DNA of 63,375 bases, the filler included, from Caldilineae bacterium (GTDB taxonomy: Bacteria; Chloroflexota; Anaerolineae; DTLA01), in assembly GCA_037446815.1 (NCBI GenBank). It is 18 parts of 18 records of this genome, joined end to end, with 100 filler letters (N's around TTAATTAATTAA, not from the genome) between each part and the next. Parts side by side here need not be neighbours in the genome. Positions count along the whole stretch, not along the records: positions 1 to 3,774 come from JBBIHX010000224.1; positions 3,875 to 7,573 come from JBBIHX010000225.1; positions 7,674 to 11,337 come from JBBIHX010000226.1; positions 11,438 to 15,096 come from JBBIHX010000227.1; positions 15,197 to 18,850 come from JBBIHX010000228.1; positions 18,951 to 22,589 come from JBBIHX010000229.1; positions 22,690 to 26,297 come from JBBIHX010000230.1; positions 26,398 to 29,962 come from JBBIHX010000231.1; 10 more parts are not named here. One strand, given 5' to 3'. Shown one piece after another: positions 3,562 to 63,375 of the stretch (within the stretch, counting starts at the first letter, position 1; every line of letters starts with the position of its first letter). A program made the position numbers and the translations under genes. The notes under the pieces are model-generated. The model was not told the DNA's origin. It made no database searches and saw nothing but the letters and a program-made list of their open reading frames with translations.

Positions 3562-3671
3562 GAGTCGGCTCCAAACTGCGTTGGTGAGCCGAGTGCACAC
3601 TCCCGTGGGGATCGCTTCGGGCGCTCCGCGCCCTCGCAATGCCGGGTGCCAACAGACTTTGGAGCCGAACC
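3562..3671. mobile_element. MITE copy, internally shortened (type 1 cargo)
   Basis: GAGTCGGCTCCAAA...CCAACAGACTTTGGAGCCGAACC; flanks TTCTTGGG / TTCTTCGC (6/8). Confidence 0.7.
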
Positions 3672-3679
3672 TTCTTCGC

Positions 3680-3774
3680 GACTCGGTTCCATCTTGTGTT
3701 GGTCTGCCCCGCACACTGTCTCCCCGCTCTGTCATGCTGAGCCGAAGGCGATACGCCCTCGCCCTTCGGGAGAG
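3680..3774. mobile_element. MITE copy (type 2 cargo), truncated by gap
   Basis: GACTCGGTTCCATCTTGTGTTGGT end, 8 bp after the previous copy. Confidence 0.75.
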
Positions 3775-3972
3775 NNNNNNNNNNNNNNNNNNNNNNNNNN
3801 NNNNNNNNNNNNNNNNNNTTAATTAATTAANNNNNNNNNNNNNNNNNNNNNNNNNNNNNNNNNNNNNNNNNNNNCGGGAGAGGGCTGGGGTGAGGGCTTC
3901 GCTCGCGGAGGCCACTTCGGCCGCTATACGCCCTCGCAATGGCAGCCTCGCAACCACTCCATGTACATGAGG

Positions 3973-4007
3973 AACGTGCGATGCACCTCGCAGGTGCGTC
4001 GCACGTT
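3973..4007. repeat. Palindromic repeat AACGTGCGACGCACCT-N3-AGGTGCGTCGCACGTT, copy 1
   Basis: Also at 11544, 14762 and 18503. Confidence 0.85.
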
Positions 4008-4027
4008 GTACGACCGAGTCGCGGGCA

Positions 4028-4056
4028 TTGCCAAACGGCAGATGTGCGTGTATAAT
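4028..4056 (+). promoter_or_regulatory. sigma70-type promoter TTGCCA-17-TATAAT (leaderless transcript likely)
   Basis: ATG 6 nt after the -10 box, no RBS. Confidence 0.65.
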
Positions 4057-4062
4057 TGTCGT

Positions 4063-4848
4063 ATGGAAGGGAAGCCGCGCGAGACGTACCAACCTTGGAA
4101 GCCGAGGGACACGCGCCCAGGCCGCACGGGCCTGACGCTGGGGCAGATAGCGTTCCTCATCGTGGTGAACGCCGTTATCGCCCTGGGCATCAGCGTCGCC
4201 GTTACCCTCACCTTGGGCCGCACGACGCCGTCTGCGCCCGCGCCTTCGCCCACGCACGCGCCACCTGTGGCCTCGGCCGCCGCGCTCCCCACAACGCCCG
4301 CCCAGCCGACGACGTACACGGTGAAGCCCGGCGACAGCCTTTCTGCCATCGCGTTTCAGTATGGCATCTCGCTGCAGGAACTCATGGCCGCCAACGGCAT
4401 CACAGACCCCGATGTGCTCTTCGCGGGGCAGAAACTCATCATCCCCGTGCCGGGGAGCATCACCCCCATTCCCACGTCGGCTCCGACCGCCGCGCCGACG
4501 GGCGTCCCGACAGCAGCGCCGACCAACACGCCGCCAACCGGCCCGGACTTGCGCATAGAGTCGGTTCAGGCGTCGTCCGACGGAAAAGACTCGTGGGTAG
4601 TCATCACCAACTGGGGGATGTGGGCGCGGCTCAAGGGCTGGACGCTGGACGATGGGCAGGGGAATGTGTACACCTTCCCCGACCTGTCGCTGTTCCAGGG
4701 CGGCAGCGTGCGCGTGCATACCGCGGCGGGGAACAATACCGAGGTGGACCTGTACTGGGGCATCAACAAGGCCGTGTTCGTGTCGGGCCGCACGCTGACC
4801 CTGAAGGACACGGCGGGCAAGGTCATGGCGTCGTACACCGTGCCCTAG
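4063..4848 (+). CDS. Membrane-anchored LysM + lamin-tail (LTD)-like domain protein
   Basis: TM helix, Pro/Thr linkers, YTVKPGDSLSAIA LysM, C-terminal VVITN..LKGWTL..D LTD-like domain. Confidence 0.8.
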   Translation: MEGKPRETYQPWKPRDTRPGRTGLTLGQIAFLIVVNAVIALGISVAVTLTLGRTTPSAPAPSPTHAPPVASAAALPTTPAQPTTYTVKPGDSLSAIAFQYGISLQELMAANGITDPDVLFAGQKLIIPVPGSITPIPTSAPTAAPTGVPTAAPTNTPPTGPDLRIESVQASSDGKDSWVVITNWGMWARLKGWTLDDGQGNVYTFPDLSLFQGGSVRVHTAAGNNTEVDLYWGINKAVFVSGRTLTLKDTAGKVMASYTVP

Positions 4849-4861
4849 CAGGTGGCGACGC

Positions 4862-5485
4862 TCATCCTTCGTCCAGGCCCCGCAGGTGGCAGGTGTCGTT
4901 CAGGTAGATGAGGGAGCGGCGGCGCGAATCCCAGAAGAAAGCGTTGATGCAGGCGTTGTCCTGCGGCATGCGCCAGTAGGCCGAGAGCTCCATGCCGAGG
5001 ACGTGGAGCATGACGGCCTTGCATACGATCTCGTGGCTGAAGAGGGCCAGGGTCTGGCCCGAGTGGGCCTCGGTGAGTTCGTTGAGCATGGCCACCGCGC
5101 GCTCCAACGCGATGGGCAGCGACTCGCCGCCGGGAAATTGCACTTCGTGGGGCGCGTGGAGCCATTGCCGGTATAGGTCGGGCCAGAGTTCGCTGACTTC
5201 CTTGGGGGTGTGGCCCTGCCACTCGCCGTAGTCCACGGAGATAAGCCCGCGGTGTATGTGGACGGGCAGGCCCAGGGCATCGGCCAGGGGCTGCGCCGTC
5301 TGCACCGCCCGCAGGAGTGGACTGGAGTAAATCGCGCGAATCGGCTCGTGCTTGAGCCACTCGGCGACCCGCTGCGCCTGGGCGAATCCCAATTCGCTCA
5401 GGGGCAGGTCGGTTGTGCCGCGAAAGTGCAGGTCTTTGTTCCAGGCGGTCTGGCCGTGGCGAATCAGTAGAAAACGCGTTGCCAT
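4862..5485 (-). CDS. Histidine phosphatase family protein
   Basis: LIRHGQT, SSPLLRA and FSH motifs. Confidence 0.88.
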   Translation of the reverse strand: MATRFLLIRHGQTAWNKDLHFRGTTDLPLSELGFAQAQRVAEWLKHEPIRAIYSSPLLRAVQTAQPLADALGLPVHIHRGLISVDYGEWQGHTPKEVSELWPDLYRQWLHAPHEVQFPGGESLPIALERAVAMLNELTEAHSGQTLALFSHEIVCKAVMLHVLGMELSAYWRMPQDNACINAFFWDSRRRSLIYLNDTCHLRGLDEG

Positions 5486-5519
5486 TGTGTCGCTCCCCAA
5501 CGCGGATGGTGTCGCGCCG

Positions 5520-5547
5520 ATTATAGGCCGTGCAGGGGGAATGTCAA
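5520..5547 (-). promoter_or_regulatory. sigma70-type promoter TTGACA-16-TATAAT
   Basis: Perfect hexamers on the minus strand upstream of the phosphatase. Confidence 0.75.
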
Positions 5548-5549
5548 GA

Positions 5550-6065: not shown

Positions 6066-6282
6066 ACGCCCGACCGCGGACGAGGAGGACGTGCTCCACA
6101 GCGGCATCCGGCGCATCGTCCTGTCGCGCGAAATGGTGCCGCGCACGCCGCGCTGGAGCCGCGCCTTCCGCCGAACCCTGCTGCGGCTGGCGCGCACCAT
6201 CCGCGAGGCCGAGCCCTCCCATCCGCCCCAAGACGAAATCCCAACCCCACCATCGGAGGAATGCAACGATGACCAACGCTGA
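6049..6282 (+). CDS. Small hypothetical protein
   Basis: Fills the gap, overlapping both neighbours; GGAG RBS. Confidence 0.4.
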   Translation: MNPKTERPTADEEDVLHSGIRRIVLSREMVPRTPRWSRAFRRTLLRLARTIREAEPSHPPQDEIPTPPSEECNDDQR

Positions 6283-7252: not shown

Positions 7253-7256
7253 GGCG

Positions 7257-7573: not shown

Positions 7574-7708
7574 NNNNNNNNNNNNNNNNNNNNNNNNNNN
7601 NNNNNNNNNNNNNNNNNTTAATTAATTAANNNNNNNNNNNNNNNNNNNNNNNNNNNNNNNNNNNNNNNNNNNNTCCAAAACGCCCAGACGCGCCGAGAGT
7701 TACGCTCG

Positions 7709-7899: not shown

Positions 7900-7930
7900 A
7901 TCTACGCTCGCAGCGCGCGATGCCGAGCCG

Positions 7931-10223: not shown

Positions 10224-11147
10224 CTACAGGCCCGCAAGGAGAACGGCCAGGATAGCCTTCTGGGCGTGCATGCGGTTCTCGGCCTGGTCAAACAGCACCG
10301 AATGGGGCCCGTCCGCCACCTCGTCGGTGATTTCCTCGCCGCGATGGGCGGGCAGGCAGTGCTCCACGATGACATCGGGCTTGGCCAGGGCCACCAGCGC
10401 CGCGTTGACCTGATACGGCGGGAACACCTTGAGCCGCTCTTCGCGCTCCTTCTCCTGCCCCATGCTCGTCCACACGTCGGTGTAGATGACATCCGCGCCG
10501 CGCACGGCCTCGGTGGGGTCGTGGGTGGTGAGGATGCGGCTGCCGGTGCGTTGCGCGATGGCCTGCGCCTTCTCCACCACCGCCTGGGGCAATTCGTACC
10601 CGGGCGGCGTGGCGATGGCGAAGTTCATCCCCACCTGCGCCGTCGCGAAAGCCAGCGACGTGGCCACATTGTTGCCGTCGCCGACGAACGCCAGGGTGAG
10701 GCCCTTCAGGCGCCCCTTCTTCTCCATCACGGTGAGCAGGTCGGCCATGGCCTGGCACGGGTGATTGTAGTCCGAGAGGCCGTTGATGACCGGCACGCGG
10801 GAGTAGGCGGCGAGTTCCTCAATGTGCTTGTGGTCAAACACGCGGGCCATGATGCAGTCCACGTAGCGGCTCAAGACGCGGGCCACGTCGGCCACGCTCT
10901 CCCGCTTGCCCAGGCCGATTTCGTCGGGCGACAGGTAGAAGGCGTACCCGCCCAACTGATGCATGGCCATCTCAAACGAGACGCGGGTGCGGAGCGACGG
11001 CTTCTGGAACACCAGGGCCAGGGTCTTGCCGCTGAGGATGGGCCGGTTGCCCCCCTGCTTCCACTCGGCTTTGAGTTGGACCGCCACGTCCAAAATGTGC
11101 TGGATTTCCTCCGGCGTGAAGTCAGATATGGCGATAAAATGCTTCAT
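10224..11147 (-). CDS. argF: Ornithine carbamoyltransferase
   Basis: [17 protein letters not shown] and HCLP motifs. Confidence 0.95.
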
Positions 11148-11210
11148 TTCCACCCTCCTGGGCATAGTATAGCACACGGAGGCGCAGGGGCGCAATTGCG
11201 GAGGCGAGCC

Positions 11211-11337
11211 GAGTCGGTTCCGTCTTGTGTTGGTCTGCCTCGCGCGCCGCCTCCCCAGTCTGTCATGCTGAGCCGAAGGCGATACGCCCTCGCCCTTCGG
11301 GAGAGGGCTGGGGTGAGGGGCGAGATTCTTCGCGGCT
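11211..11337. mobile_element. MITE copy (type 2 with nested CCCTCACCCC module), truncated
   Basis: GAGTCGGTTCCGTCTTGTGTTGGT end, 15 bp from the argF -35 box. Confidence 0.75.
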
Positions 11338-11437: not shown

Positions 11438-11538
11438 GGGTGAGGGCGTCGCCCCCTCGCCCGCTGGGAGAGGGCTGGGGTGAGGGCGTCGCTCGCGCTC
11501 TCGCACTGGCGGTTACCAACAGACTTTGGAACCGAGTC
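11438..11538. mobile_element. MITE end with CCCTCACCCC-type modules, truncated
   Basis: CCAACAGACTTTGGAACCGAGTC end. Confidence 0.7.
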
Positions 11539-11543: not shown

Positions 11544-11580
11544 CAACGTGCGACGCACCTCGGAGGTGCGTCGCACGTTG
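11544..11580. repeat. Perfect palindrome, copy 2
   Basis: 17-bp stem, 3-nt loop. Confidence 0.85.
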
Positions 11581-11744
11581 CGCCGTTGTAGGGGATGTTG
11601 TAGTGGGACAGGTCTCAGACCTTCCCCTACGGAGACCCACCCCTACGGCGGACCCCAGCCCGCAGGGCTTTATGCGCCTAGCCCGAGAACGGGCCAGGGG
11701 CGCGGGGATTTTTCAGGATGGCGCACGTATGGTACAATAGCCCC

Positions 11745-15196: not shown

Positions 15197-15347
15197 GACT
15201 CGGTTCCAAAGTCTGTTGGCATCTACCGTCATTCTGAGCGGCGAAGCCGCGAAGAATCTCGCTGACCGAGATGCTTCGCCTTCGGCTCAGCATGACAGAG
15301 CGGGGAGGCAGCGTGCGGGGCAGACCAACACAAGATGGAACCGAGTC
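15197..15347. mobile_element. Complete 151-bp MITE, type 2 cargo
   Basis: GACTCGGTTCCA...TGGAACCGAGTC perfect 12-bp terminal IR. Confidence 0.85.
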
Positions 15348-15426: not shown

Positions 15427-16080
15427 ATGGATCAATTGATACTGGATGCAGAACCCCGTACCGTCAAGGGGAAGCAGGTAAACCAATTGCGCCGCCAGGG
15501 ATTGGTGCCGGCGGTTGTGTACGGCAAGGCCATCGCGCCGGTGCATGTGCAACTGCTGCGGCGGCCGCTGGAACTGGCGCTGGAGAAGGCGGGCGAGTCC
15601 ACGCTCATCTCCCTGCGCGTCGCCGGGCGCCCCGAGCCGCTCACCGTGCTGGTGCGCGATCAGCAGCGCGACGTCCTGACCCAGGCGGTAACCCACGTGG
15701 ACTTCTACGCCGTCGTGATGACCGAGACCATCCGCGTCCACATCCCGCTGGTGTTGGAAGGCGAGCCGCCTGTGCTGCAGAAGTTCCAGGGGGTGCTCCT
15801 CCAACAGAAGGAAGAGGTAGAGGTGGAGTGCCTGCCCAAGGACCTGGTGCCGCACATCACGGTGGACGTGAGCGCGCTCCAGACCTTTGATGACGCCATC
15901 TATGTGAAGGACCTGGTGCTGCCCCCGGGGATTGAGGTGCTGGACGAGCCGGATGACCTGGTGGCGACGGTCAGCCCGGTGGCCGAGGAAGTGCCGGAGG
16001 CCGAGGCCGCGCCGGTGGAACCTGGCGAGGTAGAGGTCATCAAGAAGGGCAAGAAGGAAGAGGAAGAGGCCGAGGAATAG
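15427..16080 (+). CDS. rplY: 50S ribosomal protein L25/general stress protein Ctc
   Basis: LRRQGLVPAVVYG and HVDFY motifs, acidic tail. Confidence 0.95.
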   Translation: MDQLILDAEPRTVKGKQVNQLRRQGLVPAVVYGKAIAPVHVQLLRRPLELALEKAGESTLISLRVAGRPEPLTVLVRDQQRDVLTQAVTHVDFYAVVMTETIRVHIPLVLEGEPPVLQKFQGVLLQQKEEVEVECLPKDLVPHITVDVSALQTFDDAIYVKDLVLPPGIEVLDEPDDLVATVSPVAEEVPEAEAAPVEPGEVEVIKKGKKEEEEAEE

Positions 16081-17453: not shown

Positions 17454-17603
17454 GAGTCGGTTTCATCGCGTGTTGGTGAACCGTAGGCGCACTCTCCTCG
17501 TGTGTCATTGCGAGCGCAGCGAAGCAATCGCACGCCTTGGAGATTGCTTCGGGCACTGCGTGCCCTCGCAATGACGGGTACCAACAGACTTTGGACCCGA
17601 CTC
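17454..17603. mobile_element. Complete 150-bp MITE, type 1 cargo
   Basis: Both ends present; flanks ACGATGCG / ACTATGCG (7/8 TSD). Confidence 0.85.
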
Positions 17604-18193: not shown

Positions 18194-18339
18194 GCTGAAA
18201 TCCTCCTGTGTGAGTTTCTTGTTTTCGTGTTGGACGGTGTCTGTGTCTCTCACCGTTCCGCAGGCAGGATACCACAGGAGTGTGAAGGGATTATGAAGAG
18301 GCGCTGAAGGTCTGATGTAGAATTCGGGGGACAAAAAGG

Positions 18340-18413
18340 TGAGCCGTGCGCGACTCGAACGCGCGACACCCTGCTTAAAAGGCAGGTGCTCTGCCATGCT
18401 GAGCTAACGGCCC
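18340..18413 (-). tRNA. tRNA-Lys (anticodon TTT), CCA not fully encoded
   Basis: GGGCCGTTAGCTCAGCATGGCAGAGCACCTGCCTTTTAAGCAGGGTGTCGCGCGTTCGAGTCGCGCACGGCTCA cloverleaf. Confidence 0.95.
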
Positions 18414-18466: not shown

Positions 18467-18535
18467 GACTCGGCTCCAACGCGGGTTGGGAACCGTCAAC
18501 TGACGTGCGACGCACCTCGGAGGTGCGTCGCACGT
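18467..18535. repeat. Degenerate MITE end followed by palindrome copy 4
   Basis: GACTCGGCTCCAA at 18467; palindrome at 18503-18535. Confidence 0.65.
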
Positions 18536-18565
18536 TGGTGGGCGCGGAGCGGCGAAGAATACTGC

Positions 18566-18727
18566 CCCTCACCCCGGCCCTCTCCCGGCGGGTGAGGGAG
18601 CGTGGCCCTCACCCCGGCCCTGTCCCGCGCGGGCGAGGGAGCGCGGCCCTCACCCCGGCCCTCTCCCGGTGGGCGAGGGAGCGTGGCCCTCACCCCGGCC
18701 CTGTCCCGCGCGGGCGAGGGAGCGTGG
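18566..18727. repeat. Tandem array of four 40/41-bp CCCTCACCCCGGCCCT(C/G)TCCC...GAGGG units
   Basis: Units start at 18566, 18606, 18647 and 18687. Confidence 0.9.
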
Positions 18728-18950
18728 CGGCGCGGGGCTGAAGCTGCCGCGCTGAGGGTGTGGAGCAAACTGGCAATTTGCCCAACTTGGCCCTATCCGT
18801 GTTATCCGTGGATACAACCCTGGAGATGCTTCGCCTTCGGCTCAGCATGANNNNNNNNNNNNNNNNNNNNNNNNNNNNNNNNNNNNNNNNNNNNTTAATT
18901 AATTAANNNNNNNNNNNNNNNNNNNNNNNNNNNNNNNNNNNNNNNNNNNN

Positions 18951-19003
18951 GGGCGCTCCGCGCCCTCGCAATGACAAATACCAACGGACTGTGGAACCGC
19001 GCC
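18951..19003. mobile_element. MITE end (type 1), truncated
   Basis: CCCTCGCAATGAC...CCAACGGACTGTGGAACCG. Confidence 0.7.
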
Positions 19004-22716: not shown

Positions 22717-22867
22717 GATTCGGTTCCAAAGTCTGTTGGCACCTGCTGTCATTCTGAGCGGCGAAGCCGCGAAGAATCTCGCTGACCGAGATGCTTCGCC
22801 TTCGGCTCAGCATGACAGAGTGGGGAGGCGGCGCGCGGGACAGACCAACACAAGATGAAACCGACTC
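22717..22867. mobile_element. Complete 151-bp MITE, type 2 cargo
   Basis: Both ends present; flanks GGGTTTTC / GGATTTTC (7/8 TSD). Confidence 0.85.
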
Positions 22868-23428: not shown

Positions 23429-24756
23429 CGGTCGCGCACCAACCCGCCGTTGTGGCCGCGCCCCACGCCGCGGTAGATGAAGCCCAGTTCGCGCATGCGC
23501 GGCGGGTCGTAGATGTTGCGTCCATCCATCAGCACGGGCTGCTTCATGAGGTTCTTGATACGCTGCATGTCCAACTGCTTGAACTCGTTCCACTCGGTAA
23601 CGAGGATGAGCGCGTCGGCATCCTTGGCAACCTCGTAGGGGTCGTTGCAGTAGGTTACGGGCACGTCGGGCATGGCGCGCTTGGCCGACTCCATCGCCAC
23701 GGGGTCGTAGGCTTTCACCTGCGCGCCCTCGGCTACCAGAAGCCGCGCCAGCGTGATGGACGGCGCGTCGCGCATGTCATCCGTGTTGGGTTTGAACGCC
23801 AGCCCCAGCAGGCCCACAACCTTGCCCCGATAGGAGCCGAGGATGTCGCGCAGGTGGTTGATGATGCGCTTGCGCTGGTCGTAGTTGATCTCCATCACGG
23901 CGCGCAGGAGTTGGGGCCGCGTCCCGTGGGTAGTCGCCATGTGGATAAGCGCCTTGACGTCTTTGGGGAAGCAGGAGCCGCCCCAGCCGATGCCCGCGCC
24001 CAGGAACTGCGGGCCGATGCGCTTGTCGGTGCCCATGCCGCGCGCCACCTCTTTCACGTCGGCGCCAAGCGACTCGCAAATGGCAGCGATTTCGTTGATG
24101 AACGATATCTTGGTCGCCAGGAAGCAGTTGGAGGCGTACTTAATCATCTCGGCGGTGCGCAGGTCGGTGATGATGGTCTCGGCCTGGAGCGGGTAGTAGA
24201 GTTCGGCCACGCGCTCCGCGGCCTCGCGGCTCAGGGAACCCAGCACGATGCGGTCGGGGTTCATGAAGTCGTACACGCCCGAACCCTCGCGGAGGAACTC
24301 GGGGTTGGACACCACCCAGAAGGGGATGGACGGGTCGGGCATGTTCTCGCGGACGATGTCGGCGACCCAGTCGCCCGTGCCGATGGGCACGGTGCTCTTG
24401 TTGACGATGATGAGCGGGTGATCCAGCCGTTTGGCGATCTCCACCGCCGCGTCGTGCACGTGCTGGAGGTCGGCCTCGCCCTCAAGCCCCGACGGCGTCC
24501 CCACCGAGATGAAGACGAACTCCGCATCCTTCACGCCCTCGTCGTAGGACGTGGTGAAGAAGAGCCTGCCCGCCTCGCTGTTGCGGTGAACGATTTCCTC
24601 CAGCCCTGGCTCGTAGATGGGCAGGATACCCTTCCGCAGGTTGGCCGCCTTGCGCTCGTCTCGGTTCACGCACACTACGCGGTTGCCCAGGTCGGCCAGG
24701 CAAGCGCCCGTAACCAACCCCACATAGCCCACGCCGATCATGCAGATTCTCTTCAT
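23425..24756 (-). CDS. ugd: UDP-glucose/GDP-mannose dehydrogenase family, paralog 2
   Basis: [14 protein letters not shown] and GGSCFPKD motifs. Confidence 0.88.
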
Positions 24757-24831
24757 GCTCTTGCTCCTTTGCAGTGATGAGCGAATCGGCAGGCCGATGG
24801 CGTGGAGAGGCCGCGCGCCTGCGATCCGCGA

Positions 24832-26136
24832 TTACACACCGTAGCCGCGACCGACCCCGCGGTACAAGAAGCCCAACTGCCGCATCGTTTCGGGGTCGTA
24901 GATATTCCGCCCGTCCACAATGATGGGGCGGCGCATGGCTTCCTTGATCCACTTCAAATCCAGGTGCTTGAACTCGTTCCACTCGGTGCAGATGACCAGC
25001 GCGTCGGCTCCCTGCGCCGCTTCGTAGGCGTTCTCGCAGAAGATGACGCCGTCCAGCAGCGCCTTGGCGTTCTTCATGGCCACGGGGTCGTAGGCGCGGA
25101 TGATGGCGCCCTCGTTCTGCAAGAGGTGGATGATTTCCACGGCGGGCGCTTCGCGCATGTCGTCGGTGTTGGGCTTGAAGGCCAGGCCCAGCACGCCGAT
25201 GACCTGCTCGTCCAGCGAGCCGAGGATGTCGCGGAGTTTCTGCACCAGGCGGCGGCGCTGGTCGCGGTTGATTTCCAGCACGGCGCGCAGGAGTTGCGGG
25301 TGGCAGCCGTGGATGGCGGCCATGTGCGCCAGCGCCTTCACATCCTTGGGGAAACACGACCCGCCAAACCCGATGCCCGCGTCCAGGAACGCGGAGCCGA
25401 TGCGCTTGTCGTAGCCCATGCCGGCGGCCACTTCTTTGACATCCGCGCCCAGGGCCTCGCAGATGGACGCGATTTCGTTGATGAACGAGATGCGGTTGGC
25501 CAAGAAGGCGTTGGAGGCGTACTTGATCATCTCGGCCGTGCGCAGGTCGGTGATGACGATCGGCGCGCGGAGCGACAGGTACAGTTGGGCCACCTGCTCG
25601 GCGGCTTCACGGTTCAGCGACCCCAGCACCACGCGGTCGGGGTTCATGAAGTCGTGCACGGCAGACCCTTCGCGGAGGAATTCTGGGTTGGACACCACGG
25701 CGAACGGCACATCGTTCTTCTTGTGTTTGTTGACGATGTCGGCGACCCAGTCGCCCGTGCCGATGGGCACCGTGCTCTTGTTGACGATGATGAGCGGGTG
25801 ATTCATGACCTCGGCGATGGCTTCGGCGGCCTGGCGCACGTACCGCAAATCGGCCTCGCCTTCTGTGCCCGAGGGCGTGCCCACGGCGATGAAGACGAAC
25901 TCGGCCTCGCGGATGCCCTCGGCGTAGGACGTGGTGAAGCGCAGGCGGCCCGACTGGACGTTGCGGCGGATGATTTCCTCTAGCCCAGGCTCGTAGATGG
26001 GCATGATGGCCTGGCGGAGGTTTTCTACCTTGTGTTCGTCAATGTCTACGATGGTAACCAGGTTGCCGAGGTCTGCAAAGCATGTGCCTGTGGTCAGCCC
26101 CACATAACCGGCGCCGATGACGCAGATTTTCTTCAA
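24832..26136 (-). CDS. ugd: UDP-glucose 6-dehydrogenase, paralog 1 (TTG start)
   Basis: [18 protein letters not shown] and GGSCFPKD motifs. Confidence 0.9.
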
Positions 26137-26227: not shown

Positions 26228-26297
26228 GACTCGGTTCTATGGTTCGGTTCCATCTTGTGTTGGTGAAACGCATGGACACTCTCCTCGTGTGTCGTTG
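26228..26297. mobile_element. MITE end(s), truncated by gap
   Basis: Partial end at 26228; full end GGTTCGGTTCCATCTTGTGTTGGT at 26241. Confidence 0.7.
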
Positions 26298-33479: not shown

Positions 33480-33508
33480 AGTATAACAACACAGGGCGTT
33501 CTCGTCCA
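33480..33508 (-). promoter_or_regulatory. Promoter TGGACG-17-TATACT; contig ends 15 bp beyond the -35 box
   Basis: Extended -10 TGTTATACT. Confidence 0.6.
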
Positions 33509-33623
33509 GAATCGCCCGCCGCGNNNNNNNNNNNNNNNNNNNNNNNNNNNNNNNNNNNNNNNNNNNNTTAATTAATTAANNNNNNNNNNNNNNNNNNNNN
33601 NNNNNNNNNNNNNNNNNNNNNNN

Positions 33624-35024: not shown

Positions 35025-35696
35025 CTAGATGAGCGCCGAACGCTTGCGCCTCGGCTGCGCGGCGGTCTCGCCCGTTAGGGAAGCCCCGCAGCGGGTGCAG
35101 AACCGCTTGTTCCAGGGGAGCAGGTAGCCGCACTTGGGGCAGGTGATGGGCTGGTACTCGCCCAGGGGCGCTCCGCACGCCGAGCACTTGGGCTGCCCGA
35201 TGGGGTTGCCGACGCCGCAATAGGGGCAGACGACCTGCTTGAGCGCCTCGGGAATGCCCAAACTCCCGCCAACCGCCTCGCAGTACTGGTCAATCACCTC
35301 CCACACCTGGTTGCGCAGGTTGAGCCAATCCACATTGCGCGCCACGTTGTCCAGTTCGTTGAGCAGATACCAGGGGTTGATGAGCGCCATGAGGCCGGTC
35401 CGCGCCAGGTCTGCGGCGATGCCGATCCACTTCTGGCGCCCCATGGTAACGGTGATGCTGTCGGTGTCCTGGACGATGCCAACCGTGAGGGCTGTGGTCG
35501 GGTCCGAGTACTCCACCTGGCGGTTGGCGATCTGGACGAGGATGCGGGTGCCGTCGCCGGTCATCTGGGCGCGCGAGGTGGGCGTGTTGAAGTGGGCGAC
35601 GAGGGCGCGAGCCAATCCATCGGCGGAGATCTTGCCCCAGTAGGTGCGGGTGTCGGGCTGTTTGTCAGTTCCCAGCAGCGAACGCATGTCTTCCAT
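35025..35696 (-). CDS. Zinc-ribbon domain protein (double zinc ribbon C-terminus)
   Basis: Four CxxC pairs; TTGACG-16-TATACT 6 nt upstream of ATG. Confidence 0.82.
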   Translation of the reverse strand: MEDMRSLLGTDKQPDTRTYWGKISADGLARALVAHFNTPTSRAQMTGDGTRILVQIANRQVEYSDPTTALTVGIVQDTDSITVTMGRQKWIGIAADLARTGLMALINPWYLLNELDNVARNVDWLNLRNQVWEVIDQYCEAVGGSLGIPEALKQVVCPYCGVGNPIGQPKCSACGAPLGEYQPITCPKCGYLLPWNKRFCTRCGASLTGETAAQPRRKRSALI

Positions 35697-35747
35697 GGCC
35701 GTAGTATAGCGCGAATTCGCGGGGCGTCAATATCCCCCGAGAGGTGG

Positions 35748-35896
35748 GAGTCGGTTTCATCTTGTGTTGGTGAACCGTGGGCGCACTCTCCTTGTGTGTC
35801 ATTGCGAGTGAAGCGAAGCAGTCGCGCCCCCCGGAGATTGCTTCGGGCGCTCCGCGCCCTCGCAATGACAGCGCCAACAGACTTTGGAACCGAGCG
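35748..35896. mobile_element. Complete ~149-bp MITE, type 1 cargo, between divergent promoters
   Basis: Both ends present; 17 bp and 15 bp from the two -35 boxes; no TSD. Confidence 0.85.
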
Positions 35897-36061
35897 CCGT
35901 CGCCGCCGGATTTGGGTTTCCAGCGGTTTGGGTGTATCATGGGTGCACAGCGGCAGCGCCTATGTTTTCCAGCGGTTGACGCCCATCCGGTCCAAGCCGG
36001 ATGGGTTTTGATTGCCCCGTGCCCGTCCACGCTACCGCAAGACCAAAGAGGGAGAAATTCC

Positions 36062-36940: not shown

Positions 36941-36995
36941 GATTCGGTTCCAAAGTCTGTTGGTATTTGTCATTGCGAGGGCGCGGAGCGCCCGA
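36941..36995. mobile_element. MITE end (type 1), truncated
   Basis: GATTCGGTTCCAAAGTCTGTTGG. Confidence 0.75.
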
Positions 36996-37119: not shown

Positions 37120-37269
37120 GATTCGGTTCCAAAGTCTGTTGGTATTTGTCGTTGCGAGGGCGCGGAGCGCCCGAAGCAATCCCTGGGACGTGGGGTTGCT
37201 TCGCTTCGCTCGCAACGACACACGAGGAGAGTGCGCCTACGGTTCACCAACACAAGATGAGACCGACTC
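37120..37269. mobile_element. Complete 150-bp MITE, type 1 cargo, perfect 8-bp TSD
   Basis: CGGGCGGT at both 37112-37119 and 37270-37277. Confidence 0.9.
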
Positions 37270-43855: not shown

Positions 43856-43878
43856 GAGTCGGTTCCAAAGTCTGTTGG
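43856..43878. mobile_element. MITE end, truncated
   Basis: GAGTCGGTTCCAAAGTCTGTTGG. Confidence 0.7.
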
Positions 43879-44027
43879 NNNNNNNNNNNNNNNNNNNNNN
43901 NNNNNNNNNNNNNNNNNNNNNNTTAATTAATTAANNNNNNNNNNNNNNNNNNNNNNNNNNNNNNNNNNNNNNNNNNNNGCAATGACGGCCACCCGCAGAC
44001 GCTGGAGCCGAATGCGGGGCGCCATCG

Positions 44028-44055
44028 CGTAGGGGCGACCGATCGGTCGCCCCTA
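44028..44055. repeat. GTAG-type REP palindrome
   Basis: GTAGGGGCGACCGATCGGTCGCCCCTAC perfect palindrome. Confidence 0.8.
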
Positions 44056-44099
44056 CTCTCCCCAATCCCCGCAATCCGTGCCATCCGTGGATGCACCCC

Positions 44100-44222
44100 A
44101 ACCCTGTTCGCGTGGATTCGCGTTATTGACGGTTGCACTCCTCCGAAGTTGCCTCGTGTCGTGCGGCATTGTGCGCGACGCCAAGCCGCGTGAACTGCAC
44201 CAACACTTTTTGGAACCGAATG
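44100..44222. mobile_element. MITE variant with third cargo type (one end only)
   Basis: Highly similar to 47441-47563; ends CCAACACTTTTTGGAACCGAAT. Confidence 0.7.
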
Positions 44223-44230: not shown

Positions 44231-44405
44231 GATTCGGTTCCAAATTCTGTTGGCATCTACCGTCATTCTGAGCGGCGGAGCCGCGAAGAATCTCGCCCCT
44301 CACCCCAGCCCTCTCCCAGCGGGCGAGGGCGTATCGCCTTCGGCTCAGCATGACAGAGTGGGGAGGCGGCGTCCGGGACAGACCGACACAAGATGGAACC
44401 GAATT
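44231..44405. mobile_element. Complete 175-bp MITE, type 2 with nested CCCTCACCCC module
   Basis: Both ends present; 8 bp after the previous copy; 15 bp before TTGACG-17-TATCCT. Confidence 0.85.
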
Positions 44406-47386: not shown

Positions 47387-47563
47387 ACGCCCTCACCCCC
47401 GGCCCTGTCCCAGCGGGCGAGGGAGCGACGCCCTCACCCCAACCGTATTCGCGTGGATTTGCGTTATTGGCGGCTGCACTCCTCCGAAGTCGCTTCGTGT
47501 CGTGCGGCATTGCGCGCGACGCCAAGCCGCGCGAACTGCACCAACACAGTTTGAAACCGACTC
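47387..47563. mobile_element. CCCTCACCCC modules plus third-cargo MITE end
   Basis: Ends CCAACACAGTTTGAAACCGACTC, 16 bp before TTGACC-17-TATAAT. Confidence 0.7.
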
Positions 47564-50570: not shown

Positions 50571-50685
50571 NNNNNNNNNNNNNNNNNNNNNNNNNNNNNN
50601 NNNNNNNNNNNNNNTTAATTAATTAANNNNNNNNNNNNNNNNNNNNNNNNNNNNNNNNNNNNNNNNNNNNCGTGAAAACCCGAAC

Positions 50686-50714
50686 TTGCCAAACCCGCGC
50701 CTTTCGCGTATACT
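50686..50714 (+). promoter_or_regulatory. tup operon promoter TTGCCA-17-TATACT
   Basis: Near-consensus; contig begins 15 bp upstream. Confidence 0.7.
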
Positions 50715-53698: not shown

Positions 53699-53799
53699 GG
53701 TTCGGCTCCAAAGTCCGTTGGTAACCGCCATTGCGAGAGCACGGGCGACGCCCTCACCCCGGCCCTCTCCCGGCGGGCGAGGGAGCGTCGCCCTCACCC
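53699..53799. mobile_element. MITE end with CCCTCACCCC modules, truncated
   Basis: TTCGGCTCCAAAGTCCGTTGG; similar to the reverse of 11438-11538. Confidence 0.65.
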
Positions 53800-53899: not shown

Positions 53900-54004
53900 G
53901 ATTGCTTCGGGCGCTCCGCGCCCTCGCAATGACAAATACCAACAGACTTTAGAACCGGCTCAAGAGCACACACCGCGTAGGGACAGGTCTCAGACCTGCC
54001 CCTA
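53900..54004. repeat. MITE end (type 1) plus GTAG REP
   Basis: CCAACAGACTTTAGAACCGG; GTAGGGACAGGTCTCAGACCTGCCCCTA. Confidence 0.65.
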
Positions 54005-55749: not shown

Positions 55750-56883
55750 CTACCCCGAGCCGAATGCATCCTCAAAGGCGTCGCGCACCTTCTCAAAGAA
55801 TCCCTTGCCGTTGCTCGGGGCTACTCGCTCGCGGCCGAGGGATTGCGCGAGTTTCTCAAACAGCGCGCGCTGCTCCGCGGTCAGGTCTGTGGGGATGGCA
55901 ACGTGGATGGTAACCAGTTGGTCGCCCCGGCCGTTGCGCCGCAGGTAGGGCACCCCTTTCCCGCGCAGGCGGTACACCTTGCCATTCTGGGTGCCCGGCG
56001 CGATGGTCAGCGTCTCGTCGCCATCCAGCGTTGGCACGCGAACCGTGTCGCCCAGGGTTGCCTGAGCCACATTGATGTACAGGTCCAGCAGGATGTCGTT
56101 CTCCCGCCGCTTGAAGATGGGATGCGGCTTGACGCTGATGACGACGTACAGGTTGCCCGGCGGCCCGCCGTACTGCCCCGGCTCGCCCTCGCCGGCCAGA
56201 CGAATCTGCGTCCCCTCGTCCACGCCCGCCGGGATGCGCACGTGAATCTTGCGCGCGACCCGCACCTGTTTCTGGCCGCGGCACTCGGCGCACGGCGTGT
56301 TGACAATCTCGCCCTCGCCGCCGCAGCGCGGGCAGGTTACCACGCTGACGAACGAGCCGAGAATGGACTGCTGCACGCGGCGCACCTCGCCGGAGCCGCC
56401 GCATTCGGGGCAACGGATGGGCGAGGTGCCGGGTTCGGCTCCGCTCCCCCCGCACCGCTTGCACGTCTCCAGGCGGGGCACTTCCAAGTCCTTCTCCGCG
56501 CCGAAGACGGCTTCTTCAAACGAGATGGTGAGGTCATAGCGCAAGTCCGCGCCGCGCCGAGGCGAACGGCGGCCTGCCGTGCCCCGCGTGAACCCCGAGA
56601 AGAAACTCTCAAACAGGTCAAACGGGTCGGTGAACCCGCCGAAATCGGCGAACCCGCCCTGGAACCCCGCGTGCCCGTAGCGGTCGTATGCCGCCCGCTT
56701 CTCGTCGTCGCTGAGCACCTCATAGGCCTCGTTGATTTCCTTGAAGCGGGCTTCGGCGTCGGGCGCCTTGTTCAGGTCGGGATGATATTCCCGGGCCAGT
56801 CGCCGGTACGCTTTCTTGATTTCTTCCTTTGTCGCGCTTCGGCCTACGCCGAGCACCTCATAGTAATCGCGCTTCTCAGCCAT
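55750..56883 (-). CDS. dnaJ: Chaperone DnaJ
   Basis: HPD J-domain, G/F region, four CxxCxGxG-type repeats. Confidence 0.97.
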
Positions 56884-56968: not shown

Positions 56969-57014
56969 CAGTCGGTTTCATCTTGTGTTGGTGAAACGCA
57001 TGGACACTCTCCTC
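56969..57014. mobile_element. MITE end (type 1), truncated
   Basis: CAGTCGGTTTCATCTTGTGTTGGT, 15 bp from the dnaJ -35 box. Confidence 0.75.
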
Positions 57015-59348: not shown

Positions 59349-59554
59349 GACACACCTCCCTGCCGCCTCCGCGTCCCATTTCCGACAACTGACGCCCTCA
59401 CTCCGGCGCGTACAGTGAAGGACTACGTGGCGCGCCTGCACTGCACGGTGGGGGTGCCGCGCAGCTGTCCGTGCGCGTTTGCAGTCGCGGTTTCGTTCCA
59501 CCCTCTTGGTGGAAGCCCCATCCGCTCCCCTCGCCTCTGTTCAGTGCACCACCT

Positions 59555-60103
59555 CTAGCCAGCGTGCAGTTTGGCGCGGTCGCCCAGCGCACGCCGCACC
59601 ATGTCGCGGAAGCGCGCCATCTGCTCCTGGGACGCAAAGCACGTTTTGGGCAGAAACACGCCCCCCTGCCGCGGCAGGAGCAGCAGGAACTCGTGGGGCG
59701 TCTCCAGCACTTTGGCGAAGGTATCCCAGCGACCCGAGTGCTCGTTGCGCCCGTGATCCGAATCCACCCGCTGCACGAACCCGTCGTCGGAGAAGGTGTA
59801 GAAGATGCGCTCGTTGTTGGCGCGCTGACGGGCGATGATGCGCGCCCCCTGCCGCCGCAGGGAGAACCACAGCACAACCGGAACGAGGATGAATAGCAGG
59901 ATGGGAGCCTGGGCGAACAGCGCCTGGCCAAAGCCCATGTTGGCGGCATCGCGGATGGCCACGTACATGGCGTAGACGATGGCGGCTGCGGTTAGGGTGA
60001 GGATGGCGACGAAGGTGGGCTGGGTGAACAACAGGCGCGTGGTCGCGCGGATGTAGTCGGACAGGTCAAAGCGGAGTTCTACCTCTACGCTTTCGGCTGG
60101 CAT
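59555..60103 (-). CDS. YcxB-like membrane protein
   Basis: Two TMs then a W...VLET...LPK..F C-terminal domain. Confidence 0.7.
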   Translation of the reverse strand: MPAESVEVELRFDLSDYIRATTRLLFTQPTFVAILTLTAAAIVYAMYVAIRDAANMGFGQALFAQAPILLFILVPVVLWFSLRRQGARIIARQRANNERIFYTFSDDGFVQRVDSDHGRNEHSGRWDTFAKVLETPHEFLLLLPRQGGVFLPKTCFASQEQMARFRDMVRRALGDRAKLHAG

Positions 60104-60296
60104 CGGGCCTCCTCGTGTGCGATGTCCCGCGCAGGGCGAATCCCCGGCGGGGCATGGGTATTGTACCAGCGGCTGCGGCGGGCGTCAATTCGCCGTNNNN
60201 NNNNNNNNNNNNNNNNNNNNNNNNNNNNNNNNNNNNNNNNTTAATTAATTAANNNNNNNNNNNNNNNNNNNNNNNNNNNNNNNNNNNNNNNNNNNN

Positions 60297-62243
60297 GCGC
60301 CGATGGCCTACATCCTATGGGATCGCTTCCTGAAACACAACCCCCGCAATCCCCTGTGGCCCGACCGAGACCGTTTTGTCCTGTCCGCGGGACACGCGTC
60401 CATGCTCCTCTACTCGCTGCTCCATCTGACCGGCTACGACCTGTCGCTGGAGGACATCCTCAACTTCCGCCAGTGGGGCACCAAGACGCCCGGCCACCCG
60501 GAATTCGGCCACACCCCGGGCGTGGAGGCGACGACAGGCCCCCTCGGCCAGGGGATTAGCCACGCGGTGGGAATGGCCATCGCCGAAGCGCACTTGGCCG
60601 CGCGTTTCAATCGGCCCGGCTACCCCATCGTGGACCACCACACCTACGTCCTGGCCAGCGACGGCGACCTCATGGAGGGCGTAGCGTCAGAAGCCTGCTC
60701 CCTGGCGGGGCATCTGCGGCTCGGAAAACTCATCGTCCTGTACGATGCCAACCGCATCTCCCTAGCCGGTTCCACCGACCTCGCGTTCACCGAAGACGTT
60801 GCCAAACGCTTCCGCGCCTACGGCTGGCACGTCCAGCGTGTGGATGACGGCAACGACCTGGCGGCGATAGAGCACGCCCTCCGCAGGGCCAGAGCGCACC
60901 GCGCTCGCCCGTCTCTCATCATCGTGCGGACCATCCTGGGATATGGCGCACCCCGTAAGCAGAACACCTTTGAAGCCCATGGCGCGCCCCTCGGCGCCGA
61001 CGAACTCCGCGCGGCCAAAGAAGCCCTCGGCTGGCCCCTGGAGCCTTTCCACATCCCGCCCGACGCCCTGGCGCGCCTGCGTTCCGCCGTGCTCCGCGGA
61101 CACGAAGCCGAAACCCGTTGGCAGGCCTTGTTCGCGCGATACGCGAGACGGTACCCGGACCAGGCCGCCGAATTCACCCGTCGCATGGCAGGCGAGTTGC
61201 CCCGGGGCTGGGAGGCGGACCTGCCCGTCTTCCCGCCCGACGCCAAGGGCCTGCCGACCCGTAAGGCATCGGAAACCGTGCTCCAGCATCTGGCCACCGC
61301 CATTCCCGAACTCGTGGGGGGCTCCGCGGACCTGAACCCGTCCACTTTCACATGGCTCAAGGGCCACGGCGATTTGCAGAGTCCATCGCACAACCCCGAA
61401 GACCGACAGGGAGCGGTTGGGGGACCCTGGGGATACGACGGGCGAAACATCCACTTCGGCGTCCGCGAGCATGCCATGGGAGCCATCGCCAACGGCATGG
61501 CCCTCCACGGCGGCATCATCCCCTACACCGCCACCTTCGCCGTATTCGCCGACTACATGCGCCCGCCCATGCGCCTCGCGGCCCTGATGGGCATCCGCGT
61601 CACCTACGTCTTCACGCACGACAGCATCGCCGTCGGCGAGGATGGGCCAACCCACCAGCCCGTGGAGCAGATCGCCAACCTGCGGGCCGTGCCAAATCTC
61701 ACGGTCATCCGCCCGGCCGACGCGGCCGAAACCGTGGAGGCCTGGCGCATGGCGCTCCTCAACACCCGCGGCCCAACCGCCCTGTTCCTCACGCGGCAGA
61801 ATGTACCGACCCTGGATCGCTCGCAGGTGGCACCTGCCGAGGGCCTTCGGCGGGGAGCCTATACCCTCTGGCAGTCACGAGACGGAATCCCCGAGGCCAT
61901 CCTCATCGGGACGGGATCGGAGACCCATCTGGCCCTCGCCGCCGCACAGCAACTGGCCGACGCGGGAATCCATGTCCGAGTTGTGTCCATGCCCTCATGG
62001 GAGTTGTTTGAGCAACAGCCTCAAGCGTACAAGGACGACGTCTTGCCGCCCGCCGTGCGCGCGCGGGTCGCCGTGGAAGCAGGCGTGCCCTTGGGCTGGG
62101 AACGGTATGTCGGCGACCGTGGCGCGGTCATCGGCCTGGAGCGATTCGGAGCCAGCGCGCCCGGGCCAATCGTGTACGCCAACCTCGGGTTCACGCCCGA
62201 GAACGTGGCGGAGCAGGTGCGCCAAGTGCTTGCGCGGGTTTGA
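60297..62243 (+). CDS. tkt: Transketolase (5' truncated)
   Basis: [30 protein letters not shown] and EDGPTHQP motifs. Confidence 0.95.
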
Positions 62244-62339
62244 GTTTTCACGTAAGCAAGAACACACCGCGAGAGGCCCAGACTTTGGAATGTTCTCAGC
62301 GTTCTCCCTGTCTCTGCGCTGAGAAAAGCAGCCGCAAGA

Positions 62340-63251
62340 TCAGCGTGCGGCCAGTATCGCCGCGCACAGAATCACCGCGCCGCCCACGGCCTGCCACAGG
62401 CCAATCGTCTGCCCCAGGAACAGCGTGGACATCGCGATGACGCTGATGGGCTCCACCAGCAGCAGCACGCTGGCCGTGGCCGCCTCGGTGCGGTGCAGGC
62501 CCGCGTACATTAGGCTGTAGGGAATCGCCGTGCCGAAGATGGCAATGCCGAGGAAATCGCCCACGGTGCGCGGCGTAACGGCCCGCGGCAGCCCCAAGAA
62601 GACCTCCCCTCCCCAGCCGGCTAGCCCCATGACCGCCCCCGCCAGGCTCAGCCAGCCCAACCCGAGCACGAACGACCACATGGTGAGCGCCAGCGGGCGG
62701 ATTCCCTCCCGCACGCTCCCGCGCCGCCCCAGCACCACCACGCCCGCGTACACCAGGCTATTGGACAACGCGAAGAAGTCTCCCAGACGGATCTCGCCTA
62801 GACTTCGGATTGCCCAGAATTCCACCATGATCGCGGCGCCGGCGACGCCGATTACGATGCCGAGACCCCTGCGCCACGTCAGCCGCTCGCCGAGCACGCG
62901 CGAACCCAGCAAAGCCACAAACACGGGATAGAGGTACACGAGCAGAATCGCCTTGGCCGGTGGCGTGCCCAGCGATATGGACAGCACGTAGGTGGTGAAC
63001 GCCGACACCATGAGAAACCCATTCACGGCCACAAGCGCCCACTGGCGAGGTGTCCTCAGCCCCGCATTCCCAGGCGACACCCGCAGCAGAATGAAGGCGA
63101 AAACCGCAATGGACACCACCAGGCGCACCACGACCTGCACCAGCACGCCCACCCCGGCCTCGGTGAGCCATGTGATGAACAGCGGAAGTGCGCCGAACGA
63201 TACGCCGGACAGAACCGTGAGAAACGTCCCTGACCATTCGCGTCGTGCCAT
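62340..63251 (-). CDS. EamA/DMT family transporter
   Basis: Ten TMs in two EamA repeats. Confidence 0.85.
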   Translation of the reverse strand: MARREWSGTFLTVLSGVSFGALPLFITWLTEAGVGVLVQVVVRLVVSIAVFAFILLRVSPGNAGLRTPRQWALVAVNGFLMVSAFTTYVLSISLGTPPAKAILLVYLYPVFVALLGSRVLGERLTWRRGLGIVIGVAGAAIMVEFWAIRSLGEIRLGDFFALSNSLVYAGVVVLGRRGSVREGIRPLALTMWSFVLGLGWLSLAGAVMGLAGWGGEVFLGLPRAVTPRTVGDFLGIAIFGTAIPYSLMYAGLHRTEAATASVLLLVEPISVIAMSTLFLGQTIGLWQAVGGAVILCAAILAAR

Positions 63252-63341
63252 GGAGTGCTCCTGTGCATCCCAAGTGAAGCAAGGGGGCAACGGCGAGATT
63301 GTAATCGCACAGGCCTCTTGGCACAAATACCCGCGCGCCGC

Positions 63342-63375
63342 CATTCGGCTCCAAACCGAGCGCTGCAACCGTCAT
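63342..63375. mobile_element. Degenerate MITE end at window edge
   Basis: CATTCGGCTCCAAA, 15 bp from TTGTGC-17-TACAAT (minus strand). Confidence 0.5.

Follow-up and report, generated by a model that had tools for sequence, protein, structure and literature searches.

Miniature inverted-repeat elements at a fixed distance upstream of predicted promoters in an Anaerolineae genome, and the transposase-encoding elements that share their ends

Why should a short repeat lie, copy after copy, at the same distance outside a promoter? The question is raised by a stretch of 63,375 nucleotides (nt), here called the window, from the genome of a Caldilineae bacterium (Chloroflexota, class Anaerolineae; GenBank assembly GCA_037446815.1). 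It consists of 18 contigs of 3.0-3.8 kilobases (kb) each, sorted by size and joined by spacers of the form N44-TTAATTAATTAA-N44, and is therefore not one genomic stretch. An inspection of the letters alone (the sequence-only reading) had proposed that a repeat of about 150 base pairs (bp), scattered through these contigs, is a miniature inverted-repeat transposable element (MITE) that is directed to promoters. The answer favored here, to which we give a probability of roughly three in four, is that the MITEs derive from a 1.5-kb insertion sequence (IS) of Anaerolineae, and that a trans-acting transposase of the Mutator superfamily inserted them at a fixed register upstream of active sigmaA-type promoters.

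The repeat is a real MITE family. Its end motif, GANTCGGTTYCA, occurs 26 times in the window with at most one mismatch, where 1.47 occurrences are expected and the maximum in 100 shuffles was five; the full end is 23 nt long (GANTCGGTTYCA-N5-TGTTGG) and is present at every one of the more than 20 copies and ends for which the sequence-only reading had claimed common termini. The five variable positions distinguish an ‘A’ end (AAGTC) from a ‘B’ end (TCTTG). Elements are 110-175 bp long and non-coding, with imperfect inverted ends of 23 bp. The inventory of the window comprises six complete copies of 149-151 bp (at 15197, 17454, 22717, 33624, 35748 and 37120, as first read), one of 110 bp, one of 175 bp and about 14 ends truncated by contig ends. 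The 23-bp ends are all that the subfamilies have conserved in common. By their interiors, which are built of GC-rich hairpin modules, at least three unrelated subfamilies can be told apart, and whole copies form long hairpins (folding z -4.9 to -5.9). The repeat thus has the properties by which MITEs are recognized: a length below about 300 bp, no coding sequence (the copies are too small for a transposase of ~430 amino acids (aa)), terminal inverted repeats, a target duplication of fixed length (8 bp), and ends common to a transposase-encoding element, which is found at loci L005, L002 and L102 in other genomes.

The duplications can be followed in the window and at the related loci together. 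A perfect 8/8 duplication flanks 15 of 42 paired elements, with 7/8 in two others and 6/8 in another two; when the comparison was shifted by 3 nt as a control, the maximum was 5/8. IS-length copies belong to this set as well (L102, with a perfect 8-bp duplication, and L121), and duplications of 7 bp and 9 bp occur rarely (L038, L080). In the window, the duplication is perfect at 37120 (CGGGCGGT), 7/8 at 17454 and 22717, and 6/8 at 3562 (TTCTTGGG / TTCTTCGC), which agrees with what had been read from the sequence; no duplication is recognizable in the flanks of the 35748 copy.

Where do the ends lie with respect to promoters? Promoters were predicted on the outward flank of each end by a weight matrix for a -35 box, a spacer of 16-18 nt and a -10 box, with a score of at least 10 bits taken as a site. 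Of 27 ends scored, two have flanks that run into gaps, which leaves 25. Twelve of the 25 have a site at an offset of 15-17 nt: 15 nt at 11211, 15347, 19003, 26241, 33773, 35896, 44405 and 56969; 16 nt at 3562, 18467 and 47563; and 17 nt at 35748. At 43856 the site is 32 nt away, and the other 12 ends lack one; hence 12 of the 13 promoter-adjacent ends stand at offsets of 15, 16 or 17. The diverged end at 63342, which lies beyond the 25, contributes one further site at 15 nt. Chance alone would place ~0.02 sites at 25 ends and three offsets; the whole window contains 32 promoter-like sites at this threshold on both strands, or 2.6e-4 per position and strand. Seen from the promoter side, the position 15-17 nt upstream is taken by an element end at 11 of these 32 strong sites and by a contig break at two, 13 in all. 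At two more ends, 22717 and 37120, a hexamer (TTGCGG and TTGACT, respectively) stands at an offset of 15 and the -10 is lost in a gap. The end-to-promoter distances of the sequence-only reading are reproduced in this analysis, together with its two TTG hexamers and its statement that either end can face the promoter: about seven of the promoter-facing ends in the window are A-type and about six B-type, with no orientation bias.

The register refers to more than a hexamer. Among -35-like hexamers beside element ends, 22 of 26 have a -10 at 16-18 nt, compared with 88 of 1281 (6.9%) for all such hexamers; the whole promoter is therefore chosen, and both -35 and -10 are needed. In the 15-nt register, the -35 is constant only in its TTG, and the 15-nt linker has no conserved base. 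Genes start 34-100 nt after the -35 in most cases. Those behind the promoters encode ribosomal protein L25, ornithine carbamoyltransferase, DnaJ, DegV, a TauE-family protein, UDP-glucose dehydrogenase, an EamA-family transporter and tRNA-Lys. The housekeeping genes that the sequence-only reading had placed there (rplY, tRNA, dnaJ and argF) are all found, and degV joins them.

Which enzyme could have moved these elements? The sequence-only reading had advised a search for a full-length IS with the same ends, and such elements exist. A scan for the end pattern in one genome per species returned at least 40 loci, mostly in metagenome-assembled genomes (MAGs) of Chloroflexota, and at three of these the ends are 1.3-1.55 kb apart. 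L005 (46-1593) and L002 (154-1673), from related Anaerolineae MAGs, have the same 23-bp ends around intact open reading frames (ORFs) of 437 and 428 aa, respectively; in L007 the transposase ORF is frameshifted; and L102 is an element of 1.52-1.55 kb with an intact ORF of ~430 aa. The autonomous IS is thus 1.52-1.55 kb long, with a single DDE transposase of 428-437 aa. L002 has one A-type and one B-type end, as the MITE does, and L005 has a promoter-like site of 14.9 bits 15 nt from one end and a weak site (6.5 bits) 14 nt from the other. The protein is far from rare: at least 1664 relatives were counted among 8000 scored candidates, nearly all of ~429 aa, mostly on contigs of ~1.5 kb and named only ‘transposase’, and 422 cluster representatives were obtained at E up to 0.001. 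The transposase is present in 16 of 400 sampled genomes of the class and the exact end in 18 of 400 (the reversed control gave one hit); in a plasmid collection, the transposase had no tblastn match.

An alignment of 38 members shows invariant C37, C40, C71 and C74, an N-terminal zinc finger of the form CxxC...CxxC, followed by invariant D180, D243 and E363; H267 is also invariant and C264 nearly so, which places a C-x2-H signature past the second Asp. An AlphaFold2 model (predicted local distance difference test, pLDDT, 90.3) has helices over 265-346, between the second D and the E. The best match of this model in the PDB is the ISCth4 transposase of the IS256 family (E 3.4e-10, template modelling (TM) score ~0.5 over ~400 columns, 12-15% identity), an entry that the sequence profile alone reached only at E 0.027. 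These are the features by which prokaryotic Mutator-like (p-MULT) elements are described, namely a DDE enzyme with a long helical insert and C/D(2)H after the second D, inverted repeats, 18-39 bp long, whose terminal C is conserved, and duplications of 8-9 bp (PMC3942029); the present family has the triad, the long helical insert, the C/D(2)H signature, 23-bp ends of the form 5'-GA...TC-3' and 8-bp duplications.

Profile models narrow the assignment. Pfam Transposase_mut (PF00872), an annotation that is precomputed for most of 120 listed relatives, is passed at 34.8 and 36.0 bits against a gathering score of 21. The IS256 model (NF033543) matches 14 of 15 family proteins at 25.8-63 bits, far below its cut-off of 150, and does not match P0169. 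The ISH6 model (NF041731) gives 23.5-49.7 bits where it matches at all, with a cut-off of 240, and the duplicated 8-mers do not contain AANATNTT, the ISH6 target motif. ISLre2 (NF033529) stays at or below 22.4 bits for a cut-off of 200, and Pfam UPF0236 has no match in the partner transposases. The ISKra4 model (NF033572) does not match the query proteins at E up to 1, and its best relative scores 15.4 bits for a cut-off of 205; as a positive control, the same model finds true ISKra4 genes at 233 bits (genome G002) and 223 bits (genome G062), and zero at loci of the present family. Fold and profile scores together indicate that the transposase belongs to an unnamed IS256-like branch of the Mutator superfamily, outside ISKra4 and ISLre2. 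The sequence-only reading had taken the MITE for a non-autonomous derivative of a promoter-guided, Mutator-like DDE system in a Chloroflexota genome, and that much holds; of the transposase families that it had named for the search, ISLre2/TnGBS and ISKra4 do not apply, at no more than 22 and 15 bits, respectively.

The partners and their MITEs in other genomes show that the distance can take a second value. Of 119 distinct ends outside the window, 47 have a promoter within 40 nt, as against 3.2% of 19,975 random positions in the same loci. These offsets form two groups: 29 of the 119 lie at 2-10 nt, 13 of them at the peak of 5 nt (control 0.68%), and 14 lie at 13-17 nt, nine of them at the peak of 15 nt (control 0.46%). 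The enrichment of sigmaA promoters 13-17 bp from the inverted repeat, which defines the behavior, is thus seen both in the window and in other genomes; even a distant relative (L115, 32% identity) lies 14 nt from a strong promoter. The register goes with the genome: counts of short and long registers were 10 and 0 in G001, 5 and 0 in G397, 3 and 0 in G004 and G092, and 0 and 5 in G006 and G078; the window is all long. After more sampling, G066 proved to be mixed, with offsets of 15, 16 and one of 7, and in a tree of 24 transposases the registers are not clade-pure (L107, from G066, is sister to L105 and L108). The register can therefore be assigned to neither transposase nor host. The end sequence was tried as a predictor and rejected: position 17 tends to be G in the 5-nt class (80%) and to be C or T in the 15-nt class (most ends), but both states occur in the window, and the position is not diagnostic.

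The 10 nt between the two registers equal one helical turn, a difference that may reflect docking on one face of the polymerase-bound promoter. A broader proposal is tentative, and we doubt it more than we believe it: that an IS256-like branch of the Mutator superfamily either evolved promoter homing independently or kept it, with two discrete registers of ~5 and ~15 nt, one turn apart, set lineage by lineage and the same for IS and MITEs. If it were true, RNA polymerase holoenzyme at the promoter would offer the transpososome a single docking face (sigma region 4, the alpha C-terminal domain, or the DNA that these bend); a slight alteration of either the transposase or the polymerase of the host would move the cut by one turn; and the family would supply a natural variant pair with which to study the way in which a DDE transposase recognizes an active promoter.

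The favored account of the whole distribution is as follows. The MITEs would be internally deleted or re-filled non-coding derivatives of the 1.5-kb Anaerolineae IS; a transposase supplied in trans would recognize the common 23-bp inverted ends; the cut, staggered by 8 bp, would fall at a set distance (15-17 nt in this genome) upstream of the -35 of an active sigmaA-type promoter; and the core promoter and coding sequence would stay intact, which would let copies persist and accumulate. We infer that mobilization takes place in trans. By analogy with IS256 relatives, transposition would be of the copy-out/paste-in kind, through a circle. The register would be read from the promoter-bound RNA polymerase holoenzyme, or from the DNA that it distorts, and not from DNA sequence alone.

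A constant distance between end and promoter could also mean that the element brings the promoter with it as cargo, a mobile promoter that is part of the element. We find this barely credible, as promoters and linkers differ in sequence between copies and fall outside the target duplication, and the empty site of the 5-nt class, when rebuilt from the duplication, already has the full -35 hexamer. Loci without the element speak to the same point. The end motif is absent from all of 80 metagenome loci encoding relatives of the DegV gene beside the 35748 copy; the degV promoter is kept at L127, which has no element (TTGGAT, then TATCAT), and both divergent promoters, of degV and of the zinc-ribbon gene, are kept at the element-free L172. 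In two sets of contig data (runs X3 and X4; like X1 and X2, neither contains half or more of the words of the window), one contig from a relative that is 90-95% alike passes directly from 35735 to 35901, without the element, across a joint of unspecified letters. Promoters pre-exist in element-free relatives, and therefore the element targets promoters and does not carry them. Selection might be asked to do the work instead: insertion would be near-random, or would seek AT-rich or bent DNA, harmful copies would be lost, and the survivors would stand in the only neutral spots of short intergenic regions, which chance to lie upstream of promoters. Intergenic regions here are indeed short and half of the ends have no promoter, as that account would have it; but it cannot yield a register sharp to 1-2 nt, whether at 15-17 nt in the window or in the peaks at 5 and 15 nt elsewhere, and in the 15-nt class the 8-mers that were duplicated are rich in GC and not in AT. 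We regard it as very unlikely. Sequence-variable promoters, element-free relatives and the sharpness of the register led us to reject both the promoter-carrier and the selection-alone accounts.

A closer competitor supposes that the transposase reads promoter DNA directly: its zinc finger, or another DNA-binding part, would recognize the -35 and perhaps the -10, and the cut would follow at a fixed distance without a role for RNA polymerase. The invariant four-cysteine N-terminal domain is suggestive in this respect, as is the 5-nt group, in which the 8-bp duplication overlaps the TTG of a near-consensus TTGACA (L017, TGATTTGA; L027, GTGAATTG; L094, CCTTTTTG); and ISH6 relatives do select a motif, AANATNTT (PMC3942029). 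Set against this, the 15-nt register keeps only the TTG of the -35 and conserves no base of the linker; a properly spaced -10 accompanies the adjacent -35 boxes far more often than -35-like hexamers in general; and that -10, at 22-45 nt from the cut, would oblige a single transposase to span a considerable length of DNA. We consider direct read-out unlikely.

Several observations weigh against the derivation of these MITEs from a promoter-homing IS, and should be kept in view together. Direct read-out of DNA stands as an alternative to the proposed part of polymerase, and the promoters are weight-matrix predictions throughout. About half of the ends, and the whole elements 17454, 36941 and 53699, have no adjoining promoter; with 43856, these are the exceptions that the sequence-only reading had conceded. 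It had also found no transposase in the window, and none was detected (tblastn best E 0.34); the autonomous partner was located in other genomes, those of related MAGs, and not in this organism; and three MITE-bearing genomes (G006, G078 and G055) gave no transposase match. The relatives that supply empty sites are at 75-82% protein identity (the best DegV relatives at 82%), and an exact empty allele with a single 8-mer was not seen among the DegV relatives or at the contig joint of runs X3 and X4.

How does the family compare with systems already described? Guerillot et al. defined five prokaryotic Mutator-like families in 2014 and demonstrated that promoters are targeted by TnGBS/ISLre2 and by 13 ISKra4-group ISs, including ISKra2, ISKra4, ISKra5 and ISKra6: these insert 13-17 bp upstream of sigmaA -35 boxes with duplications of 8-9 bp, and the promoter may be at either end where the inverted repeats are nearly symmetrical (PMC3942029). 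The sequence-only reading had described such targeting by Mutator-like families, with 8-9-bp duplications, correctly; its restriction of the behavior mainly to Firmicutes does not hold, as the ISKra4 group (p-MULT 4) has elements in several phyla, Chloroflexi among them (PMC3942029). For ISLre2 itself, the restriction to Firmicutes is almost complete, and both ISLre2 and ISKra4 are located 50-250 bp from genes (PMC9208149).

The ISKra4 group resembles the present family in having a Mutator DDE transposase, the same range of duplications and distances, and a promoter at either end (PMC3942029); it differs in the transposase, which here stays so far below the ISKra4 cut-off, and the present family has in addition an amplified MITE form and the ~5-nt register. 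TnGBS/ISLre2 likewise has a Mutator-like DDE enzyme, insertion (oriented or not) 15-17 bp upstream of the -35 and 8-9-bp duplications (PMC3942029), whereas the present transposase lacks UPF0236 and an adequate ISLre2 score, the window shows no orientation bias, and the genomes in which the family was found are of the class Anaerolineae. IS256, represented by ISCth4 (PDB 6xg8, 6xgw and 6xgx), is the best match both as sequence model and as structure, and has in common the D..D..E triad, the helical insert, C-x2-H and 8-bp duplications; it is separated by the low score, by the low identity to ISCth4 and by the four-cysteine zinc finger at the N terminus. Moreover, IS256 (p-MULT 1) has no position-specific enrichment at promoters and ISH6 selects a sequence, AANATNTT, according to PMC3942029, whereas the present family is strongly promoter-directed.

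The transposase lineage, its amplified MITE form and the second insertion register look new. The literature on ISKra4, ISLre2, Anaerolineae MITEs and insertion specificity yielded no published MITE form of a promoter-targeting element, and the available portions of PMC3942029 do not describe a second register. These comparisons cover the literature, and an IS of this family may already have been catalogued.

Classical bacterial MITEs, such as the Correia/NEMIS elements of Neisseria, are similar to the present ones in being short, non-coding, multi-copy and intergenic, with inverted repeats, target duplications and hairpins. Some of them carry promoter parts of their own; here, the promoter is the host's. 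None of the classical bacterial MITEs is known to us to hold a constant distance from -35 boxes that were already in place.

Few safe-haven strategies are known among bacterial transposons, and homing to the upstream edge of a promoter is one of them. How it works has been a matter of hypothesis since contact with the polymerase initiation complex was proposed for TnGBS, by analogy with Ty3 (PMC3942029); the matches listed for TnGBS literature from 2015 on, streptococcal surveys or unrelated uses of the term, do not address the targeting mechanism. The present family adds a third transposase lineage with promoter homing, the one closest to IS256, and its miniature form has become numerous enough to stand at 13 of the 32 strongest promoter-like sites of the window and to interrupt the assembly. 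As a single family with two sharp registers, at 5 and 15 nt, it also amounts to a built-in experimental comparison. The elements also mark active promoters of uncultured Chloroflexota to the base, and explain the fragmentation of some MAGs at gene starts.

The composition of the window itself follows from the repeat. By our reading, at least 20 of ~35 contig ends are in it or next to it; these contigs exist because the assembler broke there, and the window's density of about one element per 3 kb therefore results from ascertainment and overstates the density in the genome. On the favored account, fragmentation of the assembly is a result of the high copy number of the family. Two breaks lie exactly 15 nt upstream of a -35, as the sequence-only reading had observed and as expected if an unassembled copy begins at each: a contig end at 33503-33523 (- strand; TGGACG, 17 nt, TATACT, with a 2-hydroxyacid dehydrogenase gene next) and a contig start at 50671-50691 (+ strand; TTGCCA, 17 nt, TATACT). 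Run X1 shows that the MITE family is very abundant there: summed contig depth is ~4000 over MITE parts and 6-12 over unique parts, a sum over all organisms in the run and not a copy number.

The complete copies lie as follows. Two of 151 bp belong to subfamily 1: that at 15197-15347 has its right end 15 nt from TTGACG, 17 nt, TATAAT, which is the rplY promoter (gene at 15427-16080, + strand), and that at 22717-22867 has the TTGCGG hexamer beyond its left end. The copy at 17454-17603 (150 bp, subfamily 2) has a promoter on neither side, and that at 37120-37269, also of 150 bp, has its TTGACT 15 nt beyond the left end. A copy at a contig start, 33624-33773, faces the promoter of the TauE-family gene (TTGGTC, 17 nt, TACAAT) from 15 nt at its right end. 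The 149-bp copy at 35748-35896 stands amid divergent promoters, that of a zinc-ribbon gene at 17 nt and that of degV at 15 nt. The 175-bp copy at 44231-44405, subfamily 1 with an extra hairpin module, begins 8 nt past the previous element and has its right end 15 nt from TTGACG, 17 nt, TATCCT. The short 110-bp MITE at 3562-3671 has its left end 16 nt from an outward promoter (TTGACA, 17 nt, TATCAT; -35 start at 3545, - strand).

The remaining copies are cut by contig ends or are seen as tails. B-type ends occur in a second MITE at 3680-3774, 8 nt beyond the 3562 copy; at 11211-11337, with a promoter 15 nt outside the end that is directed into argF (ornithine carbamoyltransferase, 10224-11153, - strand); at 26241-26297, 15 nt from the promoter of the UDP-glucose dehydrogenase gene (24832-26136, - strand), and bordered on its outer side by an end fragment (26228-26239); and at 56969-57014, 15 nt from the dnaJ promoter (dnaJ at 55750-56883, - strand). 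A-type ends are those of the tail at 11438-11538, which adjoins no promoter, of the tail at 18951-19003, 15 nt from TTGACA, 16 nt, TATACT, and of the truncated copy at 36941-36995. An end with an array of GC-rich hairpin repeats (18467-18850, truncated by the contig end) lies 16 nt from the tRNA-Lys promoter (gene at 18338-18413, - strand). The third subfamily is represented by the tails of one or two elements at 43979-44222, with ends at 44014 and 44222, and by the tail at 47387-47563, 16 nt from TTGACC, 17 nt, TATAAT. The truncated end at 43856-43878 has its nearest promoter 32 nt off; the end at 53699-53799, also truncated, and the tail at 53900-53961 have none. At the end of the window, the diverged end at 63342-63375 lies 15 nt from the promoter of the EamA-family gene (62340-63290, - strand).

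MITEs are sometimes found in pairs, head to tail, with a spacer of exactly 8 nt, the length of the duplication; the window has two such pairs, at 3671/3680 and 44222/44231. Several more MITE-MITE junction contigs occur in run X1 at single-copy depth, each with its own spacer, of 9-11 letters if the count starts 2-3 nt within the end. Successive insertions at the same target were tried as an explanation: this fits the 3562 pair, at 6/8, and fails for the 44231 pair, whose spacer (GCGGCGCG) differs from its flank (CGCATGGC). Circle or dimer junctions of the IS256 type have spacers of 6-10 bp (PMC3942029).

Some MITEs contain GC-rich hairpin units of ~40 nt, of the CCCTCACCCC...GGTGAGGG type, in tandem (18551-18712, 11438-11490, 44282-44330, 47387-47440 and 53736-53799); these look like insertable modules of which the variable interiors are composed. 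A separate palindromic repeat of ~40 nt (ACAACGTGCGACGCACC...GGTGCGTCGCACGTTG) adjoins element ends in two contigs, at 11545-11585 and 3975-4015.

A few further observations concern genes and contig ends. Three genes, at 35696 (- strand), 4063 (+ strand) and 63290 (- strand), begin 34-36 nt past the first base of their predicted -35. Transcription would be expected to start there or no more than a few bases away, and their mRNAs would be leaderless. The ISKra4 genes of the positive control, L207 (G002) and L208 (G062), both from genomes of the class Anaerolineae, appear to be split over two frames, which cover model positions 24-105 and 99-422; this may be a frameshift. A break at 60188-60196 places the end of a contig 8 nt before a strong -35 (TTGACG, 17 nt, TACAAT), which could reflect another repeat family at a different register, or chance. 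Two tandem paralogous segments, 71-79% identical and ~1.38 kb apart, occupy 23504-26031, and the right-hand one is the UDP-glucose/GDP-mannose dehydrogenase gene whose promoter adjoins the 26241 end.

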